Of a DNA stretch of 64,000 nucleotides, positions 18,151 through 28,785 are shown in pieces; position 1 is the first letter of the stretch; each line of letters opens with the position of its first letter. The notes under the pieces are model-generated. The model was not told where the DNA came from. It saw only the letters and a list, made by a program, of their open reading frames with translations, and did not search any database. The stretch is taken from NCBI GenBank assembly GCA_044351695.1, contig JBILFF010000001.1, forward strand, positions 66,722-130,721, written 5' to 3'. The stretch is from Bdellovibrionota bacterium. Its GTDB lineage: Bacteria; Bdellovibrionota; UBA2394. Position numbers and translations under genes: made by a program.

Positions 18151-18226
18151 TGGTGGACCGGATCGGGGTCGAACCGACGACCTCTACAATGCCATTGTAG
18201 CGCTCTACCAACTGAGCTACCGGCCC
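18151..18226 (-). tRNA. tRNA-Ala(GGC), CCA encoded
   Basis: Cloverleaf folded by hand: acceptor GGGCCGG/CCGGTCC with the G3:U70 Ala identity pair, anticodon loop AT-GGC-AT, T-loop TTCGACC, 3' CCA. Confidence 0.85.
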
Positions 18227-18834
18227 ACTGAAAGACTCTTCTTCTTACGTGAAAGATTTTCAGATCTCAAATGAGATTCGCTCTGACGCTGTGCGTAATT
18301 ATGCACAAGCTCGCCAGATTCTACTAAGAGGGGCCTTTTAGTTTTAATTTTTTCTAATAGTAGTCGTAGTAGGTACCCCACTTCCCTGTGGAAATGTACT
18401 AACATACTGTAATTATTGACTAATTTATTCACAGCGCCTGTGGAGATTTTATACACAATTTTGGATTTTCAAAAATTTATCCACAATTTCTAAAAATCTC
18501 ACACAGAATTCACAGGCTACACACAGGAGTTATGCACAGGTCTGACAATTTCATGCACAGCTGTGCATAAATACCTGTGCATAAGTCTCTTTTTCCTTCA
18601 TTTATGCACAGCTTTGTCTTCTTGCGGCGCGAGAGCCTGTGCATAACTCCTAATAAATTAAAAAAAATGAGTAATTTCAATAGGATATTATCCACAGGCC
18701 TGTGCATAAATCTGTGCATAAAGTGTGCATAACTGCCAAAATCTGTGCATAAATAATGACAAGCTTTGCTGAGACCAGCAAAAGTGACGACTATAAGTCA
18801 CCTTTAAAAATTGAAAGATTAAAAAAAATAGAAC
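18227..18834. promoter_or_regulatory. Chromosomal origin of replication (oriC) with DnaA-box cluster and AT-rich unwinding element
   Basis: At least 14 copies of TTAT(C/G/A)CACA or TGTGCATAA. Starts: 18299, 18425, 18449, 18477, 18530, 18562, 18576, 18602, 18638, 18688, 18701, 18713, 18724, 18744. AT-rich stretch about 18650-18690. Lies between dnaA and dnaN. Confidence 0.85.
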
Positions 18835-20358
18835 TTAAACGCCTAGATCTCGAATCTGAGTTTCAATTCGACCGAGAGATTCTTTCAGAAAAGGATCCGA
18901 ATCTTGCAATCGTCCAATTCGTCGAACGGCATGCAGAACCGTCGTGTGATTCTTCCCACCAAATAGGGTTCCAATATCGGGCAATGAGAGATTGGTGTAC
19001 TTGCGACACAAAAACATCGCTAACTGTCTGGGAGTAGCGAGTTCACGGGTCTTCTTTTCACCCTTCAGATCGCCGATGCTCAAGCGGTACTGACGAGCGA
19101 CCAGCTTCATGATCTCTTCAGGATCACGAAATACTGGAGAGCCGTCTTGCGACTCCGGTTTTAAAACATTTTTGGCTAATTCTACAGTGATCTCTGATCC
19201 TGAGAGCGAGGCGAAGGCACTCAATTTTAAAAGAGCTCCCTCAAGCTCTCGAATGTTGGACCGATACATTTTAGCTAGAAGAAAAGCCACATCCTCGGAC
19301 AAATTGATTCCATCGGATTCTGCTTTCTTAAAAATAATCGCTACACGAGTCTCCATTTCGGGAGGCTGAATATCCACCAACAATCCCATCTCAAAACGAC
19401 TACGCATACGGTCCTCAAGGCCTTCGATGTCTTTCGGGGGTCGGTCGGAGGAGAGAACAATCTGTTTTTGATGTTCGTAGAGGGCATTAAAGGTATGAAA
19501 AAACTCTTCTTGGGTTCGCTCTTTGCCCTTCACAAATTGAATATCGTCGATAATCAAAACGTCGCAGTTTTTACGATATCGATCTCTAAATTCTTCCATT
19601 TTCTCGAAGCGAATGCTTTCGATCATGTGATTGGTGAACTTTTCAAAGGTCGTATAATGCACGCGCAAAGAGGGGTATCGCTCTTGGATTTTAAGACCAA
19701 TCGCATTTAAGAGATGTGTCTTACCGAGACCAACATCTCCATAGATAAAAAGCGGATTGTAATGTTTACCCGGGGCTTCAGTGACCGTGTAAGCCGCTGC
19801 GTGAGCAAATTGATTACTGGCACCGACCACAAAAGTTTCGAAACCATACTTAGTGTTGAGCACTGTTTCAGAAGAAAGAGTGGAGGGTCCCGTCTTTGAT
19901 GGTCCCGTTGGAGGAACAGCGGACACATTTTTTTTGAGAGTCTGAGCCGAAACCGCCGTGCTTGGTCGAGCCACAGCTCTACCGGGGCTAGAAACCCGCT
20001 TTTGTTCAATCGAGAACTCCAAACGATATTTGGCATTTGAGGCCAAACTAAACTGCTCTTCAATTAAGCCTGAATAGTGGTCGTAGACCCAGTCTCTTGA
20101 AAAACCATTAGGAAATCCTAAAACTAAGGTGTTTTCTTTAGCGCCGAGAAGTCGAATGGTAAGGATAAACGATTGAAAATATTGAGGTCTTACAACTGAC
20201 TCGATCGCCTTGAGGGTCCGATCCCAAGCGACCGCCATGTCCTCTGGGACATTTGATTCCTCGCCTTGATTCTCCTCCTCAGTTCTCATATACCTCACAT
20301 CGATCTTTGGGATACCACCTCGGTGGATCTGCAGTAGGTAGTAACTTGTACTCAGCAT
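18835..20358 (-). CDS. dnaA: Chromosomal replication initiator DnaA. Likely start at an internal Met, about 20238 or 20289
   Basis: AAA+ Walker A GDVGLGKTHLL, sensor motifs, and the C-terminal DnaA-box-binding helix-turn-helix (…ATPRQLAMFLCRKYTNLSLPDIGTLFGGKNHTTVLHAVRRI…). Confidence 0.95.
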   Translation of the reverse strand: MLSTSYYLLQIHRGGIPKIDVRYMRTEEENQGEESNVPEDMAVAWDRTLKAIESVVRPQYFQSFILTIRLLGAKENTLVLGFPNGFSRDWVYDHYSGLIEEQFSLASNAKYRLEFSIEQKRVSSPGRAVARPSTAVSAQTLKKNVSAVPPTGPSKTGPSTLSSETVLNTKYGFETFVVGASNQFAHAAAYTVTEAPGKHYNPLFIYGDVGLGKTHLLNAIGLKIQERYPSLRVHYTTFEKFTNHMIESIRFEKMEEFRDRYRKNCDVLIIDDIQFVKGKERTQEEFFHTFNALYEHQKQIVLSSDRPPKDIEGLEDRMRSRFEMGLLVDIQPPEMETRVAIIFKKAESDGINLSEDVAFLLAKMYRSNIRELEGALLKLSAFASLSGSEITVELAKNVLKPESQDGSPVFRDPEEIMKLVARQYRLSIGDLKGEKKTRELATPRQLAMFLCRKYTNLSLPDIGTLFGGKNHTTVLHAVRRIGRLQDSDPFLKESLGRIETQIRDLGV

Positions 20359-22963: not shown

Positions 22964-24275
22964 TCCTGAAACCATTGTTGCATTATCGACCCCCCCGGGC
23001 CGCTCGGCCCTTGCGATAGTTCGGGTCTCGGGGCCAGAGGCCTTTGCGGTGATTCAGGGGATGACTTCGATGCAGGATCTTCCGAAGGCCCGCTTTGCCG
23101 CCCTAAGGCACTTGAGGCGCAAGGATGGGGAGCTTCTGGACGAGTCCTTGGTGCTTTTGTTTCCGGGACCTGGGTCTTATACTGGCGAGGACTTGGTAGA
23201 AATTCATTGTCACGGAAACCCTCTCATTTATGAGGCTATTCTTGCTGAGATTGTTTCACGTGGAACGCGCCTAGCCCGACCCGGAGAGTTTAGTTTGCGG
23301 GCGGCCCTGAACCAGAAGCTCAGCCTTCACGAGCTTGAGGGCTTAGATTTGATACTGAACGGTCAGAGTGAGGCGGTGGTTCGGATGGGCCTCAGGGCAA
23401 AAATGGGAGATTTCTCTCAAAGAGCCCAAGAATTAAAAGAAAAAATACTCAATTTAAGTGCAGAGCTTGAGGCCCGACTCGATTTTCTTGAAGAAGATCT
23501 CGATGATGGCCTAAAAAGCAGGATTCAAGGCGAGCTTTTGGGGGTGGAGCGATCTCTCTCGGAGTGGTTAGCAAGCTATCAGAGATCAAGGCGCTTTATT
23601 GCTCGCCAATCGGCTTGCTTAGTGGGCAGGCCTAATGTGGGAAAGTCCTCTCTTTTTAATGCTCTGATTGGCGAAGAAAGGGCCTTGGTGCACGAGTTGG
23701 CGGGCACCACTCGAGACTACCTTGAGGTAGAGCTTCGCCTGGGCGATCGATATATTCTTTTATTCGATACCGCCGGTCTAAGAGAAGCACAGGACCCGAT
23801 CGAACAGATGGGAATTGAAAAGAGCAAAGAAGCCATTGCTCGATCGGATACGGTGATTTGGGTGTCTGATACAGGCGAGGAGCCGCCCGAGGCCCTGACT
23901 CTTGGGCTCGGAGATCGTCGCCTTATTAGGGTTCTATCGAAATCAGAAGGAGACAGGCCGGCTGCCCAGGGATTTTTGTCTGTATCTGCTAAAGAAGGTG
24001 TAGGGCTTGAGGCTCTAAAAGCGGCTATTTTGGGCCCCAAAGAGGATTCAATCGGAGATCTTTCTTATATTTTATCAGATCGAGAGGCAAAGGTCTTGGA
24101 GCGAGCTATGCAAATTGGCGCCCAAATGCGTGAGGGTTTAAGTTCTGGAGAGCCCCTTGAGTTGGGAGCAGAGAGGCTTAGGGCTTTGGCCGCCCAGCTA
24201 GAGGACTTGATTGGCAAAAAAGCACACGAAGACGTTTTGAAAAGAATTCTGGGGCGGTTCTGTATCGGAAAGTGA
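22953..24275 (+). CDS. mnmE: tRNA modification GTPase MnmE
   Basis: G domain GRPNVGKSSLFNAL, DTAGLRE, and C-terminal CIGK motif. Confidence 0.9.
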   Translation: MVDNPETIVALSTPPGRSALAIVRVSGPEAFAVIQGMTSMQDLPKARFAALRHLRRKDGELLDESLVLLFPGPGSYTGEDLVEIHCHGNPLIYEAILAEIVSRGTRLARPGEFSLRAALNQKLSLHELEGLDLILNGQSEAVVRMGLRAKMGDFSQRAQELKEKILNLSAELEARLDFLEEDLDDGLKSRIQGELLGVERSLSEWLASYQRSRRFIARQSACLVGRPNVGKSSLFNALIGEERALVHELAGTTRDYLEVELRLGDRYILLFDTAGLREAQDPIEQMGIEKSKEAIARSDTVIWVSDTGEEPPEALTLGLGDRRLIRVLSKSEGDRPAAQGFLSVSAKEGVGLEALKAAILGPKEDSIGDLSYILSDREAKVLERAMQIGAQMREGLSSGEPLELGAERLRALAAQLEDLIGKKAHEDVLKRILGRFCIGK

Positions 24276-24279
24276 GTAT

Positions 24280-24325
24280 TGTTTCACATGAAACATTTGA
24301 TCCATTCAATGTTTCATGTGAAACA
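24280..24325. promoter_or_regulatory. Pair of 16-bp sites (TGTTTCA-NN-TGAAACA) that are exact reverse complements of each other, separated by 14 bp, in the 61-bp mnmE-mnmG intergenic region
   Basis: Site 1 at 24280-24295 is tgtttcacatgaaaca. Site 2 at 24310-24325 is tgtttcatgtgaaaca, its exact reverse complement. Each site is itself a 7-2-7 palindrome. Confidence 0.5.
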
Positions 24326-24336
24326 GTGGCGGTTTA

Positions 24337-26229
24337 ATGGTGGATTTTGATGTCATTGTCGTTGGCTCAGGACATGCGGGAGTAGAAGCAGCCCTGGCCG
24401 CTGCTCGCATGGGGGCAAAGACTCTTTGTATGACCATGAGCGCCGACCAGATTGGCACCATGTCTTGTAATCCAGCGATAGGCGGATTAGGAAAATCGCA
24501 TTTGGCCAAAGAAATCGACCTTCTTGGTGGGTGGATGTGTAGGGCCGCGGACTTCTCGGCGATGCAATACCGGGTTTTGAACGAAAAAAAAGGCGCGGCC
24601 GTTCGCTCAACCCGGGTACAAACGGATAGACATCAGTATCGAGAGCATTTGAAGTGGGTTTTAGAGACTCAGCCGAATCTGCGACTTATGCAGGCCCAGG
24701 TTGAGAGCTTAATTTTAAGCTCGGGAAGGGTGTCGGGCGTTCAGACCACATTGGGAATTCGCGTTTCTGCTTCAAAAGTTATTATCACCACCGGAACCTT
24801 TATGAACGGGCGGGCTCATGTAGGAAAGCAAAGCTTTTCTTCGGGCCGAGCGGGTGAGCCGCCCTCTTTGGGTTTATCCGAGTTTTTGAAAGCACAGGGG
24901 GTTAGGCTGGGCAGATTCAAAACAGGAACTGTTCCGCGCGTGGATGGTCGAAGCATTGATTTTTCAAAGCTAGAGGCCCAGGGCTCGCATGAATTTGCTC
25001 GTCCCATGTCGTATTTCACTGTCGAGAAGCGAAAAGACCTCGAGCCTGCCTTTATTGGGCACACTAACCCGCGCACGCACGAGATTATTCGAGGCGATCT
25101 CGATAAATCGCCGCTCTACTCGGGCATTATCGAGAGTCGAGGCCCCCGCTATTGTCCGTCTGTAGAGGACAAGATAGTTCGTTTTGCAGACAAAGAGAGA
25201 CATCAGATCTTTGTGGAGCGAGAGGGCCGCAAAACCAATGAGCATTATGTGGGCGGGCTAAGCACGAGTCTTCCTTACGAAACTCAATTGGAGTTTCTTC
25301 GAAGCATCGTGGGCTTGGAGCGAGTTGAGATTGTGCGTCCGGGATACGCGATTGAGTACGATTATATAGACGCCACCCAACTAAACAGTCGGCTAGAAAT
25401 GAAAGAAATGCCGGGGCTCTACTTTGCGGGCCAGGTGAACGGGACTTCGGGTTATGAAGAAGCTGCGGCCCAGGGGATTGTGGCGGGGATCAATGCTGCA
25501 GCATCGAGTTTGGGCCACGAAGCTTTAGAGCTTGATCGATCAGAGTCTTATATTGGGATTCTTATCGACGACCTTACTCGCATCGTGGGCACCGAACCCT
25601 ATCGAATGATGACCTCACGAGCTGAACATCGCCTGGCTTTGCGTGAAGACAATGTTGACGAGCGCTTAATCTCTCACTCAAAGCGGCTACGCTTGCTGAG
25701 CGATCGGGAGCTTCAGAGGCTTGAGAGCAATTTAAAAAAGAAGGCCCAAATAAAAGAAGAGCTCGAATCTAAAAAGCTAAAACCAGACGCCGCAACTCAA
25801 GAGCTTTTTCGGTTATTAGGAGAGGGCGAGTTGAAAAGTCAGATAAGTCTTTTAGATTTTTCAAGAAGGCCGAACATTTCGGCTCAAGATTTGATGAGGC
25901 TCTTTTGTTTTGAATATCCTTCGGATGTGTTTGAGACGGTAATTACAGATATTAAATATGAGGGCTACATCAAGCAGGCCCACTCTCAACTGCGGCAGCT
26001 CGAAAAAATGAGAAGCTTAAAAATTCCCGAAGGGCTTCGTTATGAGTTTATCAAGGGCTTAAGTCGAGAGGCGATCGATCGGCTTAATCAATCTAAGCCC
26101 AAGGATCTGGCAGAGGCTTCTCGACTAGAAGGTGTGAGCTCTGCCGCGCTCACTGTTCTTTCTATTTTTCTTTCAAAGAGAGAATCGAGAAGTTCTTATA
26201 AAGATTCTTGCGCTGCAGAATCAGCATAA
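24337..26229 (+). CDS. mnmG: tRNA uridine 5-carboxymethylaminomethyl modification enzyme MnmG (GidA)
   Basis: FAD-binding N-terminus VVGSGHAGVEAALAAARMG and the conserved GidA body. 630 aa. Confidence 0.95.
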   Translation: MVDFDVIVVGSGHAGVEAALAAARMGAKTLCMTMSADQIGTMSCNPAIGGLGKSHLAKEIDLLGGWMCRAADFSAMQYRVLNEKKGAAVRSTRVQTDRHQYREHLKWVLETQPNLRLMQAQVESLILSSGRVSGVQTTLGIRVSASKVIITTGTFMNGRAHVGKQSFSSGRAGEPPSLGLSEFLKAQGVRLGRFKTGTVPRVDGRSIDFSKLEAQGSHEFARPMSYFTVEKRKDLEPAFIGHTNPRTHEIIRGDLDKSPLYSGIIESRGPRYCPSVEDKIVRFADKERHQIFVEREGRKTNEHYVGGLSTSLPYETQLEFLRSIVGLERVEIVRPGYAIEYDYIDATQLNSRLEMKEMPGLYFAGQVNGTSGYEEAAAQGIVAGINAAASSLGHEALELDRSESYIGILIDDLTRIVGTEPYRMMTSRAEHRLALREDNVDERLISHSKRLRLLSDRELQRLESNLKKKAQIKEELESKKLKPDAATQELFRLLGEGELKSQISLLDFSRRPNISAQDLMRLFCFEYPSDVFETVITDIKYEGYIKQAHSQLRQLEKMRSLKIPEGLRYEFIKGLSREAIDRLNQSKPKDLAEASRLEGVSSAALTVLSIFLSKRESRSSYKDSCAAESA

Positions 26230-26256
26230 GTTTTAATAGTACTGGGAGGGCTGCAA

Positions 26257-27486
26257 GTGGAGACAGATGCGCCGATGATAAGCGGACAGTTGAAGATTAT
26301 TTCTGTGGCGAACCAAAAAGGTGGCGTGGGCAAAACAACATCTTCAGTAAACTTTGCAGCTTCTCTTGCCGCGGCGGGCCATAAAACTCTTTTGATCGAT
26401 TTAGATCCTCAGGGCAATGCGAGTTCGGGTTTGGGGGTTGATCGTTATGCGTCTTCGACCATTTACGATGTCTTGATTGGCCGCACCGAGCTAACGCAAA
26501 GCATTCAAAAAAGTGTTTTGGACGACCTGTACGTTATTCCTGCTAATCAGAACTTAATTGGGGCTGAGGTAGAGTTAATTAATGCGATTTCTCGGGAGCG
26601 CAAGCTTAAGACCGCGCTCAAGAAGCTTCCCGAGGATTTTAGGTTCGTTGTTTTTGATTGTCCGCCCAGTTTGGGTCTTTTGACGATCAACGCTTTCACG
26701 GCAAGTCACAGCCTATTGATTCCAATTCAGTGCGAGTACTATGCGATGGAGGGTTTGGGGCAGTTGCTGAACACCTTTCAGATTGTGAAGGAAGACCTAA
26801 ATCAAGACCTGCGTATCGAAGGGATTGTTTTAACGATGTATGACCCCCGCAACAAATTGACGCACGAGGTCGTAAAAGAAATGCGAACGCATTTTCCAAA
26901 TGAGCTTTACGAGACCCATGTGCCCAGGAACGTCAAGCTTTCGGAGGCCCCCAGTTTTGGTAAGCCAGTCTTATTATATGATTGGGATTCGAAGGGCTGT
27001 CAGGCCTACTTGCAGTTGGCGGGAGAGTTTTTAAAAAGAAACTCTCTTCCGGAGCCAAACTGGAAGCTGATTCAGAAAAAATATCTGCCCCTTGTGGAAC
27101 AAGAGGCGGTTGAGGTGGTTGCCGCAGAGCAGGCGCCGACTGAGATGATTGCCCTAGAGCAGGCACCGACTGAGATGATTGCCTTAGAGCAGGCACCGGG
27201 TGAGCATGAGCAAATGGACCTCGCTCCGGTTGAGCTAGAACTCTCGAGCTTAGATCTATCTGGCGCGGCGCCCAATCTTTCTGAGGCGGGCGAGGATGGC
27301 CGGGCCTCTTTTATAACGCAGCAAGTCGAGTTTTTTGATAAGAGCCTTGACTTAAATGAAACGAAGGAGCCTGAATTGGTCGAATTGTCGTCTCAGGCCA
27401 ACGAAGGTCAGGTTTTAGAGCCCATAGACCAGGCTCCAGCCCTTCAGATAACAGAAGAGCTGTCGGCTCAAGAATTAAGGAACTAG
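26257..27486 (+). CDS. parA: Chromosome partitioning ATPase ParA/Soj with an approximately 140-aa acidic C-terminal extension containing tandem repeats
   Basis: Deviant Walker A NQKGGVGKTT. The ParA fold spans about 270 aa. It is followed by a Glu/Ala/Pro-rich tail (AEQAPTEMIALEQAPTEMIALEQAPGEHEQ…). Confidence 0.85.
   Translation: METDAPMISGQLKIISVANQKGGVGKTTSSVNFAASLAAAGHKTLLIDLDPQGNASSGLGVDRYASSTIYDVLIGRTELTQSIQKSVLDDLYVIPANQNLIGAEVELINAISRERKLKTALKKLPEDFRFVVFDCPPSLGLLTINAFTASHSLLIPIQCEYYAMEGLGQLLNTFQIVKEDLNQDLRIEGIVLTMYDPRNKLTHEVVKEMRTHFPNELYETHVPRNVKLSEAPSFGKPVLLYDWDSKGCQAYLQLAGEFLKRNSLPEPNWKLIQKKYLPLVEQEAVEVVAAEQAPTEMIALEQAPTEMIALEQAPGEHEQMDLAPVELELSSLDLSGAAPNLSEAGEDGRASFITQQVEFFDKSLDLNETKEPELVELSSQANEGQVLEPIDQAPALQITEELSAQELRN
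27122..27203 (+). repeat. 30-nt tandem repeat, about 2.6 copies, inside the parA 3' extension
   Basis: gagcaggc(g/a)ccgactgagatgattgcc(c/t)tag repeated at 27125, 27155 and partially at 27185. It encodes EQAPTEMIAL repeats. Confidence 0.8.
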
Positions 27487-27504
27487 TTTTCGGCGGAGGA
27501 AATT

Positions 27505-28425
27505 ATGGAAACAACACAGGGGACAGGAAATCAGCAAGCAAATCGGAGCGTTTTGGGTCGAGGTATTGGCAGTCTTTTGCCCGAGACCAATAAGCGCGGC
27601 TATATTTTGTGTGCCGTAGGAGAGCTCTATCCAAACCCCGCGCAACCGCGGAAACATTTTGATCCTGCCAAGCTCGATGAGCTCGCACAAAGTATTCGCG
27701 AAAAGGGTGTCCTACAGCCGATTTTGGCCAAAAAGACTGAGCGCGGGTACATGATTATTGCGGGAGAGCGTCGCTGGAGAGCTTCTCAAATCGCGGGCAA
27801 GAAAGAGGTGCCCGTCATTATTAAAGAACTTTCTGATCATGAAATCCTAGAGCTGGCGCTCATCGAGAATATTCAGAGAGAGGATCTTAACCCGATTGAG
27901 GAGGCTGAATCCTATCAGCGTCTCATTATTGATCTTGGTCTCACTCAGGATGAAATCTCCAAGCGGGTCGGAAAGGATCGATCCACGATTGCCAACGCGC
28001 TTCGGCTTCTAAAGCTTTCTAAAGAGGTTCGTGAGAAAATTTCGTCTGGGGAGCTCAGTGTTGGCCATGCGCGCTGTCTGATTACGCTGGAAGATAAGAA
28101 GGTTCAGAATCAAATCATGGAGGAGATTCTGACGAAGCAGTATTCGGTGCGCCAGGTCGAAGCCCTGGTAAAGCGGTTCCGCGGAGCCGGCGCTTCGGAC
28201 GAGCCCGGCGCCGAGGGCGCAGAAACCAGCATCGAAACCGAGCTGGCCGGGTATGGAGAAATCACGAATTCCTTGCGCAAGCTCTTGGACACCAAAGTGG
28301 AGATCCGGTCTCAAAAGGCGGGACGGGGCCAGCTCGTTCTTCATTTTTTGACGCCTGCCGACTTAAACAAGATTCTTGGTAGACTAGGCTATGGCAGCGA
28401 TCGGCAAGAAGATGCAACAGCCTGA
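27505..28425 (+). CDS. parB: Chromosome partitioning protein ParB/Spo0J
   Basis: ParB box …IIAGERRWRAS… and helix-turn-helix …STIANALRLLKL…. Confidence 0.9.
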   Translation: METTQGTGNQQANRSVLGRGIGSLLPETNKRGYILCAVGELYPNPAQPRKHFDPAKLDELAQSIREKGVLQPILAKKTERGYMIIAGERRWRASQIAGKKEVPVIIKELSDHEILELALIENIQREDLNPIEEAESYQRLIIDLGLTQDEISKRVGKDRSTIANALRLLKLSKEVREKISSGELSVGHARCLITLEDKKVQNQIMEEILTKQYSVRQVEALVKRFRGAGASDEPGAEGAETSIETELAGYGEITNSLRKLLDTKVEIRSQKAGRGQLVLHFLTPADLNKILGRLGYGSDRQEDATA

Positions 28426-28785
28426 AACAATCACCCTCCTCGATAAGGGATGTGAGTTTCAAGGAAAGCTTTCCTTTGAGGGTGTGGTTCGTATTGATGG
28501 GGGCTTTGAGGGAGAAATTTTTTCTCAAGACCACCTCATTATTGGAGAAGGTGCTCGGGTTGAGGCCACAATCCATGTGGGCCGACTTGAGGTTGGCGGC
28601 TTTTTTAAGGGGACTCTACGGGCCGCATTGAGGGGCATATTCAGGCAAAAGATATTGAGGCTCATCATGGAGCTGTGATCGATGGCCAGCTGGACATGAG
28701 TGCGCTCCGGCAGACGAGTATAGACGCTCAGTCGATGAACTCTGCCCTCAGTGTGCTGACCGCGGAAGTCCGTTCTCACAGCTAA
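28391..28785 (+). pseudogene. Bactofilin (DUF583) gene interrupted by a -1 frameshift at a GGGG run near 28609-28612. This is either a sequencing error or a genuinely disrupted gene
   Basis: Frame 1 encodes …GEGARVEATIHVGRLEVGGFFKG. The frame offset by one nucleotide continues DSTGRIEGHIQAKDIEAHHGAVIDGQLDM… to the stop at 28783-28785. Both halves are bactofilin beta-helix repeats. A fifth G would restore one ORF of about 130 aa. Confidence 0.6.

Follow-up and report, generated by a model that had tools for sequence, protein, structure and literature searches.

The 64,000-nt stretch of DNA analysed here (the window; contig JBILFF010000001.1 of a Bdellovibrionota bacterium) carries a parA gene on the plus strand at 26257–27486, coordinates that take in the stop codon, within the gene order yidC-mnmE-mnmG-parA-parB-bactofilin-atp. 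Its 409-aa product is a chromosomal ParA/Soj ATPase that continues, past the point where its solved relatives end, into an acidic C-terminal tail predicted to be largely disordered, and an acidic tail is likewise found on all of its 52 closest homologues. The usual picture of a ParA ATPase is that of a bare ATPase fold that takes its regulation from ParB, from DNA and from lineage-specific landmark proteins.

The open reading frame starts with GTG, with GGGAGGG upstream; an alternative ATG at 26275 would give a protein of 403 aa. We assign aa 1–262 (26257–27042, plus strand) to the canonical ATPase core on the basis of Pfam AAA_31, the alignment with PDB entry 8RAY and the invariant columns of the family alignment. 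In a Pfam scan, AAA_31 (E=3e-62) and CbiA (E=2e-27) matched over aa 13–255, and no Pfam domain was found beyond aa 255 or in the tail. The nearest solved structure, Myxococcus xanthus ParA21-274 (8RAY; E=1e-86), aligns query residues 13–262 with chain residues 4–254 of 255, residue for residue to aa 262, where the structure stops; we therefore place the canonical end of ParA at about aa 262. The Soj structures of Helicobacter pylori (6IUB) and Thermus thermophilus (1WCV/2BEJ; E ~1e-59 for 6IUB and 1WCV) stop there too.

The deviant Walker A motif K21-G-G-V-G-K26-T27, with its signature lysine, is invariant in the family alignment, and the DNA-binding segment PRNVKLSE is kept, with R224 invariant and K227 conserved in 90% or more. 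In 8RAY, the counterpart of K227 is the second arginine of PRNVRLSE, which is R238 in M. xanthus ParA (numbering inferred from chain offsets); R238 in M. xanthus and R189 in Bacillus subtilis are basic residues for non-specific DNA binding. At 409 aa, the protein exceeds the ~250–285 aa of a chromosomal ParA and runs 147 residues past the end of 8RAY, an extra length that leaves its membership in the ATPase family untouched. Judged by its sequence, the window's ParA is canonical and presumably functional. An independent JGI contig (L082) matches the entire parA gene at 100% identity, with DNA identical to the window from 24257 to 28614.

Composition and predicted order of the tail

The frame of the 147 residues after aa 262 contains no stop codon, whereas the alternative plus-strand frames have 13 and 12, and its GC content by codon position (0.68/0.35/0.55) resembles that of the adjacent genes. 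Because the frame is stop-free and its codon-position GC is gene-like, the tail is taken to be clearly coding, and thus translated. Its TAG stop is followed by a good Shine-Dalgarno sequence and then by the parB start. No stop or frameshift before 27060, the nucleotide from which the initial annotation had the tail run, was found in other assemblies: the L082 contig is identical and four protein records have the same tail. That nucleotide lies within codon 268, and the peptide that the annotation quoted for the tail is its exact translation.

Between aa 263 and 409 there are 31 acidic residues (D+E, 21%) against 7 basic ones (K+R), giving a net charge of -24 and a pI of 4.05. The annotation had described an acidic tail of 140 aa rich in Pro, Ala and Glu; the residues that prevail are instead Glu (17%), Leu (13.6%), Ala (11.6%) and Gln (8.8%), with Pro at just 7.5%. 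An AlphaFold2 (AF2) monomer model, built on a 55-sequence alignment, keeps a predicted local distance difference test score (pLDDT) above 84 up to about aa 280. The first part of the tail, aa 263–280 (SLPEPNWKLIQKKYLPLV; 27043–27096, plus strand), is modelled as an ordered C-terminal extension, or cap (pLDDT 96 for aa 261–270 and 84 for 271–280), in which a P-x-P-[ND]-W motif and an extra helix (269–276) are predicted to lie within the folded domain. It is followed on the same strand by an acidic linker (aa 281–346; 27097–27294) that holds a tandem repeat and is predicted to be disordered, with pLDDT 40–55 (over aa 281–345); by a conserved distal motif with a predicted helix (aa 347–363, DGRASFITQQVEFFDKS; 27295–27345; pLDDT 59–73); and by a disordered acidic distal segment (aa 364–409; 27346–27483; pLDDT 42–54). 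Within the last of these, alignment of the closest tails reveals a third, semi-conserved island, VLEPIDQAPALQITEE (aa 386–401; 27412–27459, plus strand). Since aa 263–280 are ordered in the model, the disordered tail comes to ~129 aa. The annotation's view of a real, acidic tail that is predicted to be disordered is supported, and the solved relatives, which stop at about aa 262, agree with its statement that canonical ParA/Soj proteins end near 260 aa with no counterpart to the tail.

No Rfam family was found over the tail region, the only matches in the whole 64-kb window being two tRNAs. A phmmer search with aa 263–409 against 1.84 billion representatives likewise gave no true match. The sole hit (E=5e-4), a PDZ-containing protein with LDQAPSTHRA repeats, was rejected as a chance low-complexity match of one repeat on another.

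Distribution among relatives and conserved islands

In a search of 5.8 billion proteins, every one of the 52 best homologues (57–88% identity, 411 bits or more) measures 299–436 aa; from homologue 53 on, identity is at most 61%, scores are at most 336 bits and lengths are 253–287 aa. Every one of the 52 has an acidic tail, 46–183 aa long (median 90), with 18–28% D+E, ~5% K+R and a net charge between -8 and -41 (median -16) that follows tail length closely (r = -0.90). The few relatives that bear names are metagenome-assembled genomes (MAGs) labelled Bacteriovoracaceae, Bradymonadales or Deltaproteobacteria. The nearest relative (P0002, on contig L081) is 88% identical over aa 1–280 and 24% identical over the remainder; even between close relatives the tails share ~20–25% identity, and their length varies 4-fold. 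The composition of the tail is held constant as its sequence drifts to near-random identity. These comparisons point to a trait of the whole lineage and not to an oddity of one genome, with just a 10-residue duplication being private. The initial annotation had named a tail that is ubiquitous and unremarkable in its clade as something that would refute its reading, and this applies by half: the tail is ubiquitous (52/52), but with conserved motifs inside it is not obviously unremarkable.

A second, more distant group, made up of Bdellovibrionota/Bdellovibrionales MAG loci (L059, L073, L075, L076), also has ParA proteins with acidic tails, of 37–139 aa. The tips of these tails (...GGLEHGIN, ...GGVEHGIS, ...KGVEYGNS, ...KGTDHGIA) resemble G-G-[LV]-E-H-G-I-[SN], and in the window's clade ...DGGLE, ...DGGIE or ...EVGG closes some of the tails. 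The shared GG-type endings hint that a motif at the C-terminal tip may be old.

Residues that do not vary among the four closest tails are, in tail numbering, P5, W7, K12 and P16 in the cap, R87, F90, I91 and D103 in the distal motif, and E126. The distal motif has the core [KR]-x-x-[FYH]-[AI] followed by ELD[LI]N, the core being R349-x-x-F352-I353 in the window's ParA, and eight further relatives have W-K-S-P-[YH]-A-[IL]-E...S-x-I-P in the corresponding position. Of the 52 tails, 12 contain a generalised form, [KR]-x-x-[FYHC]-[AI], compared with 0.4 in composition-preserving shuffles, and 18 contain the P-[DN]-W cap, counted as P[DNSRE]W, compared with ~1. These counts are indicative only, as both patterns were set post hoc on tails of related proteins. 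Other subclades have islands of their own, namely LTxEQWxxLExATAPE (in five tails), G-[FY]-[DE]-K caps, and GG or [ST]EV termini. A second AF2 model, of the relative P0011, reproduces the ordered cap helix, and the two models together lend only partial support to a helix at the distal motif. Low order, biased composition, fast turnover and conserved islands, the marks of a disordered tail with short motifs, are all present here, and the islands may have a binding role.

The tandem repeat

The linker contains an in-frame tandem repeat on the plus strand (27127–27198), consisting of two copies of EQAPTEMIAL (27127–27156 and 27157–27186) and a partial third, EQAP (27187–27198). Tandem Repeats Finder (TRF) reports it as an array of period 30 with 2.9 copies over 27111–27198 (88 nt; score 134), one of just two arrays in the window. 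The initial annotation had noted two full copies differing at 2 of 30 nt, followed by a partial copy, as we find, with the differences misplaced at 27133 and 27182; they lie at 27135/27165 (GCG/GCA, Ala) and 27154/27184 (CTA/TTA, Leu), and both are synonymous. The repeat sits where the tail is least conserved and least ordered, and it is private to the species: P0002/L081 has a single AAEQVIEAPTE-like stretch instead, and P0003 and P0004, whose tails were aligned along with it, also lack the repeat. Other tails have low-complexity internal repeats too (for example P0037 and P0032).

A recent origin, as the annotation proposed, fits two copies set apart by two synonymous changes, together with the lack of the repeat in a relative 88% identical over aa 1–280. 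The copy-number variation that it also suggested was not seen: all records of the species (proteins P0001, P0121, P0122 and P0123, and contig L082), a small sample of possibly related origin, have the same tail with the same repeat number, and two exact-pattern scans of metagenome contigs yielded no further copies of the locus. The repeat is best seen as a recent, near-neutral duplication by replication slippage that probably added 10–14 residues to the linker, and we infer that it is neither a functional module nor a variable switch.

Genomic context

Downstream of parA, parB (27505–28425, plus strand) encodes a 306-aa protein with ParB_N, HTH_ParB and ParB_C domains, whose N-terminal RSVLGRGIGSLL is the ParA-binding motif as defined previously (PMC12462528). 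Two parS-like sites with one mismatch each, TGTTTCACATGAAACA (24280–24295) and TGTTTCATGTGAAACA (24310–24325), lie 30 nt apart in the 61-nt spacer between mnmE and mnmG, and a third, with two mismatches, lies inside mnmE (23252–23267); 0.32 such matches would be expected by chance. At the minimum of the cumulative GC skew there is a dense cluster of DnaA-box-like 9-mers (TTATCCACA, TTATGCACA and the complement TGTGCATAA; 18280–18760), which includes a TRF array of 12-nt period (18700–18754) and is flanked by a tRNA gene (18154–18226, minus strand) and by a minus-strand open reading frame of dnaA size (507 aa; 18835–20358). This cluster is the probable oriC, ~8 kb from parA. The context corresponds to an ordinary, origin-proximal chromosomal ParABS system, and the parS sites point to an operative one.

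The bactofilin gene that follows parB (28391–28785, plus strand) is disrupted in the window. Compared with the otherwise identical contig L082, 31 nt (GATTATGGCTCGCGAGCTACTCATTGTTCAC) are missing after 28614, and the resulting frameshift ends frame 0 at 28678, after 95 aa, and leaves the rest, 28615–28785, out of frame; in other assemblies and in relatives, bactofilin is 137–148 aa long. The loss could be either a real deletion variant (a pseudogene) or an assembly error.

Some further features of the gene junctions were observed. No rsmG (gidB) lies between mnmG and parA, the spacer being 27 nt long (26229–26257), and the same compact junction is present in L081, L083 and L085; in Bdellovibrio bacteriovorus, a putative rRNA methyltransferase gene, bd3908, lies upstream of parA (PMC10547168). 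The parA and parB genes are in one frame, parted by TAG and six sense codons (FSAEEI; 27484–27504), such that read-through of the single TAG would yield a ParA-ParB fusion. The start of the bactofilin reading frame overlaps the end of parB by 14–35 nt (window 28391–28425, L081 8029–8057, L083 6903–6916), which suggests translational coupling.

Possible roles of the tail

Our data are most readily accommodated, if tentatively, by a polyanionic and flexible tether that offers short docking motifs to the surface of a partner protein, which would in turn position or regulate ParA. The lineage would have acquired a polyanionic, disordered C-terminal extension on a canonical ParA, forming a tether that is flexible, extended and repelled by DNA. 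The P-x-P-N/D-W cap at its proximal end is predicted to pack against the ATPase fold, the acidic make-up of the tether would keep it soluble and away from the nucleoid-binding face, and its short linear motifs would be presented to a binding surface of the partner. A precedent for a terminal ParA peptide that docks on a landmark is the mycobacterial ParA, whose N-terminus binds DivIVA (PMC7379644).

Several observations weigh against docking. The distal helix of the window's ParA is modelled with just moderate confidence, and at the corresponding WKSPYALE of P0011 the model has just a 3-residue helix with pLDDT ~55. The distal motif is found in just 12 of the 52 tails, by a pattern set after the data had been seen, and its sharing among related sequences is partly a matter of descent. 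Moreover, all that the 52 tails have in common is charge and composition, for which an electrostatic or solubility role, with no docking involved, would be just as good an explanation.

The tail could also act in cis. It would then fold back on the basic, nucleoid-binding face of the ParA dimer or on its ParB-peptide pocket, as a tethered mimic of DNA or of the partner, and would thereby weaken non-specific binding to DNA or adjust the activation of the ATPase, in the manner of the acidic tails of SSB, Hfq and HMGB1. We consider such a cis role, the main alternative to docking, possible but doubtful. It would account for the strong negative charge that scales with length, the only property common to 52/52 tails, and the basic residues on which such a mimic would act, R224 and K227, are kept. 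[quoted passage not shown] The ParB-binding pocket exists in the ParA dimer only (PMC12462528), so our monomer models could not show a tail docked there. Against a cis role, simple charge mimicry needs no specific conserved motifs, and the distal motif resembles the LG[RK]GL helix of ParB only loosely, with its basic residue at the edge and acidic residues in the helix. The core shows no gain of positive charge to match the tail, its median net charge being -3.5 in the tailed clade and +2 in untailed matches. The untailed M. xanthus ParA differs from those matches at the same positions, however, so that the difference is a lineage effect and speaks neither for nor against a cis role.

It is unlikely, in our estimation, that the tail is a neutral or generic appendage, an entropic bristle or solubility tag kept for bulk acidity and disorder, whose motifs reflect shared ancestry and whose repeat reflects slippage. 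Much in the record would suit such an appendage: the 4-fold length variation and low identity even between close relatives, the lack of any detectable homologue of the tail among the 1.84 billion representatives, the internal repeats of P0037 and P0032, and the tendency of ParA proteins to insolubility (PMC7843461). It fits less well with an open frame retained in 52/52 lineages, with a composition within a narrow band, and with invariant aromatic and basic residues amid an otherwise randomised sequence.

A more specific idea, and a quite improbable one, is that the basic-aromatic helix (aa 347–363), on its polyanionic leash, is a cis-regulatory peptide that engages the ParA dimer at the ParB-peptide pocket or the DNA-binding face, which would let the molecule slow or time its own binding to the nucleoid and the activation of its ATPase. 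If true, such an intramolecular brake or timer might be an adaptation to filamentous, non-binary growth, in which many chromosome copies have to be partitioned, as in predatory relatives.

The initial annotation had connected the tail with the adjacent bactofilin gene. That ParA docks through its tail on this bactofilin, or on a PadC-like adaptor of a bactofilin scaffold as in myxobacteria, now seems very improbable, and we do not favour the adjacent bactofilin as a partner. The order parA-parB-bactofilin is indeed kept throughout the tailed clade (L081, L083/84, L085 and GCA_041442895.1). The same order is found in B. bacteriovorus (bd3906-bd3905-bd3904), where the three genes are co-transcribed (PMC10547168, PMC7186360), and bactofilin scaffolds organise ParABS in M. 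xanthus (PMC5703909). However, adjacency does not track the tail. In a comparison set of ~80 loci, taken from a pattern scan of genome contigs dominated by conserved ATPase patterns, ParA has a tail of 0–15 aa, and bactofilin follows parB in most of them (more than 50), among Desulfuromonadales, Nitrospira, Deferribacterales, Myxococcales and others. Since untailed ParA proteins share the same synteny, the adjacency is old and independent of the tail. In addition, Myxococcales ParA proteins of this set have short tails (~11 aa, for example EKNRVRRTKRVA) that are basic and not acidic; M. xanthus ParA is recruited via PadC to BacNOP, and BacM, encoded at the same gene position as the bactofilin here, is reported not to be involved in ParABS positioning (PMC5703909). 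Finally, the bactofilin gene is broken in the window, and the ParA sequence, tail included, is unchanged.

We give practically no credence to an artefact, whether by way of an overlooked stop or frameshift that was read through or of a repeat assembled wrongly: the 31-nt difference from other assemblies ~1.1 kb downstream makes local assembly or consensus errors conceivable, but an independent contig has identical DNA over the region, NCBI and JGI records agree fully on the protein, the whole array spans 88 nt with distinguishable copies, coding signatures are present and all relatives are tailed.

For this window, then, the tail is a clade trait, the repeat an ordinary recent duplication, and the bactofilin connection unsupported. 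In the literature searched on ParA tails and on the Bdellovibrio ParABS system, we found no description of an acidic, disordered C-terminal tail on a chromosomal ParA, and the tailed ParA would seem to be a previously undescribed, lineage-wide variant of a well-known protein. A polyanionic tail of 50–180 residues that has conserved motifs across a lineage points to an extra, undescribed layer of ParA regulation or positioning, for which the P-x-P-D/N-W cap and the R/K-x-x-F/Y/H-A/I helix provide concrete mutational targets.

Comparison with known systems

The window's ParA shares with canonical ParA/Soj proteins (8RAY, 1WCV/2BEJ, 6IUB) the KGGVGKT motif, the AAA_31/CbiA core, PRNV[KR]LSE, a parB gene downstream, parS nearby and oriC at ~8 kb. 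Those proteins end within about 0–15 residues of the position equivalent to aa 262, whereas here an 18-residue ordered cap and a 129-residue acidic, disordered tail are added.

As in MinD and FlhG, a short C-terminal helix is appended to an ATPase of the ParA/MinD family. Unlike their membrane-targeting helix, the one described here is internal, 46 residues from the C-terminus of a tail with a charge of -24, contains acidic residues and has a moderate hydrophobic moment (at most 0.49, over aa 352–362). A membrane-targeting helix was considered and rejected on these grounds and on the tail's pI, and membrane binding by the distal helix appears unlikely.

With the BacNOP-PadC-ParA system of M. 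xanthus, in which a non-nucleoid scaffold positions ParA (PMC5703909), the locus has in common a bactofilin gene directly downstream of parAB. PadC and BacNOP are encoded elsewhere there, though, the bactofilin of the window matches BacM by position, and the Myxococcales tails differ in length and charge. No PadC is known for the window's system, though no search aimed at one was made.

The pMF1 system resembles ours in that an acidic polypeptide is physically coupled to ParA, ParC being needed there for a soluble, active form (PMC7843461). ParC has its own gene, however, which lies upstream of parA in a plasmid type I system, and no sequence relationship with the tail is expected.

The mycobacterial ParA that interacts with DivIVA/Wag31 differs in that its docking peptide is N-terminal, ~10 residues long and not polyanionic, as compared with a C-terminal tail of more than 100 residues. 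What the two have in common is a lineage-specific terminal peptide that lies outside the ATPase fold and that, in mycobacteria, docks on a landmark in competition with the nucleoid (PMC7379644).

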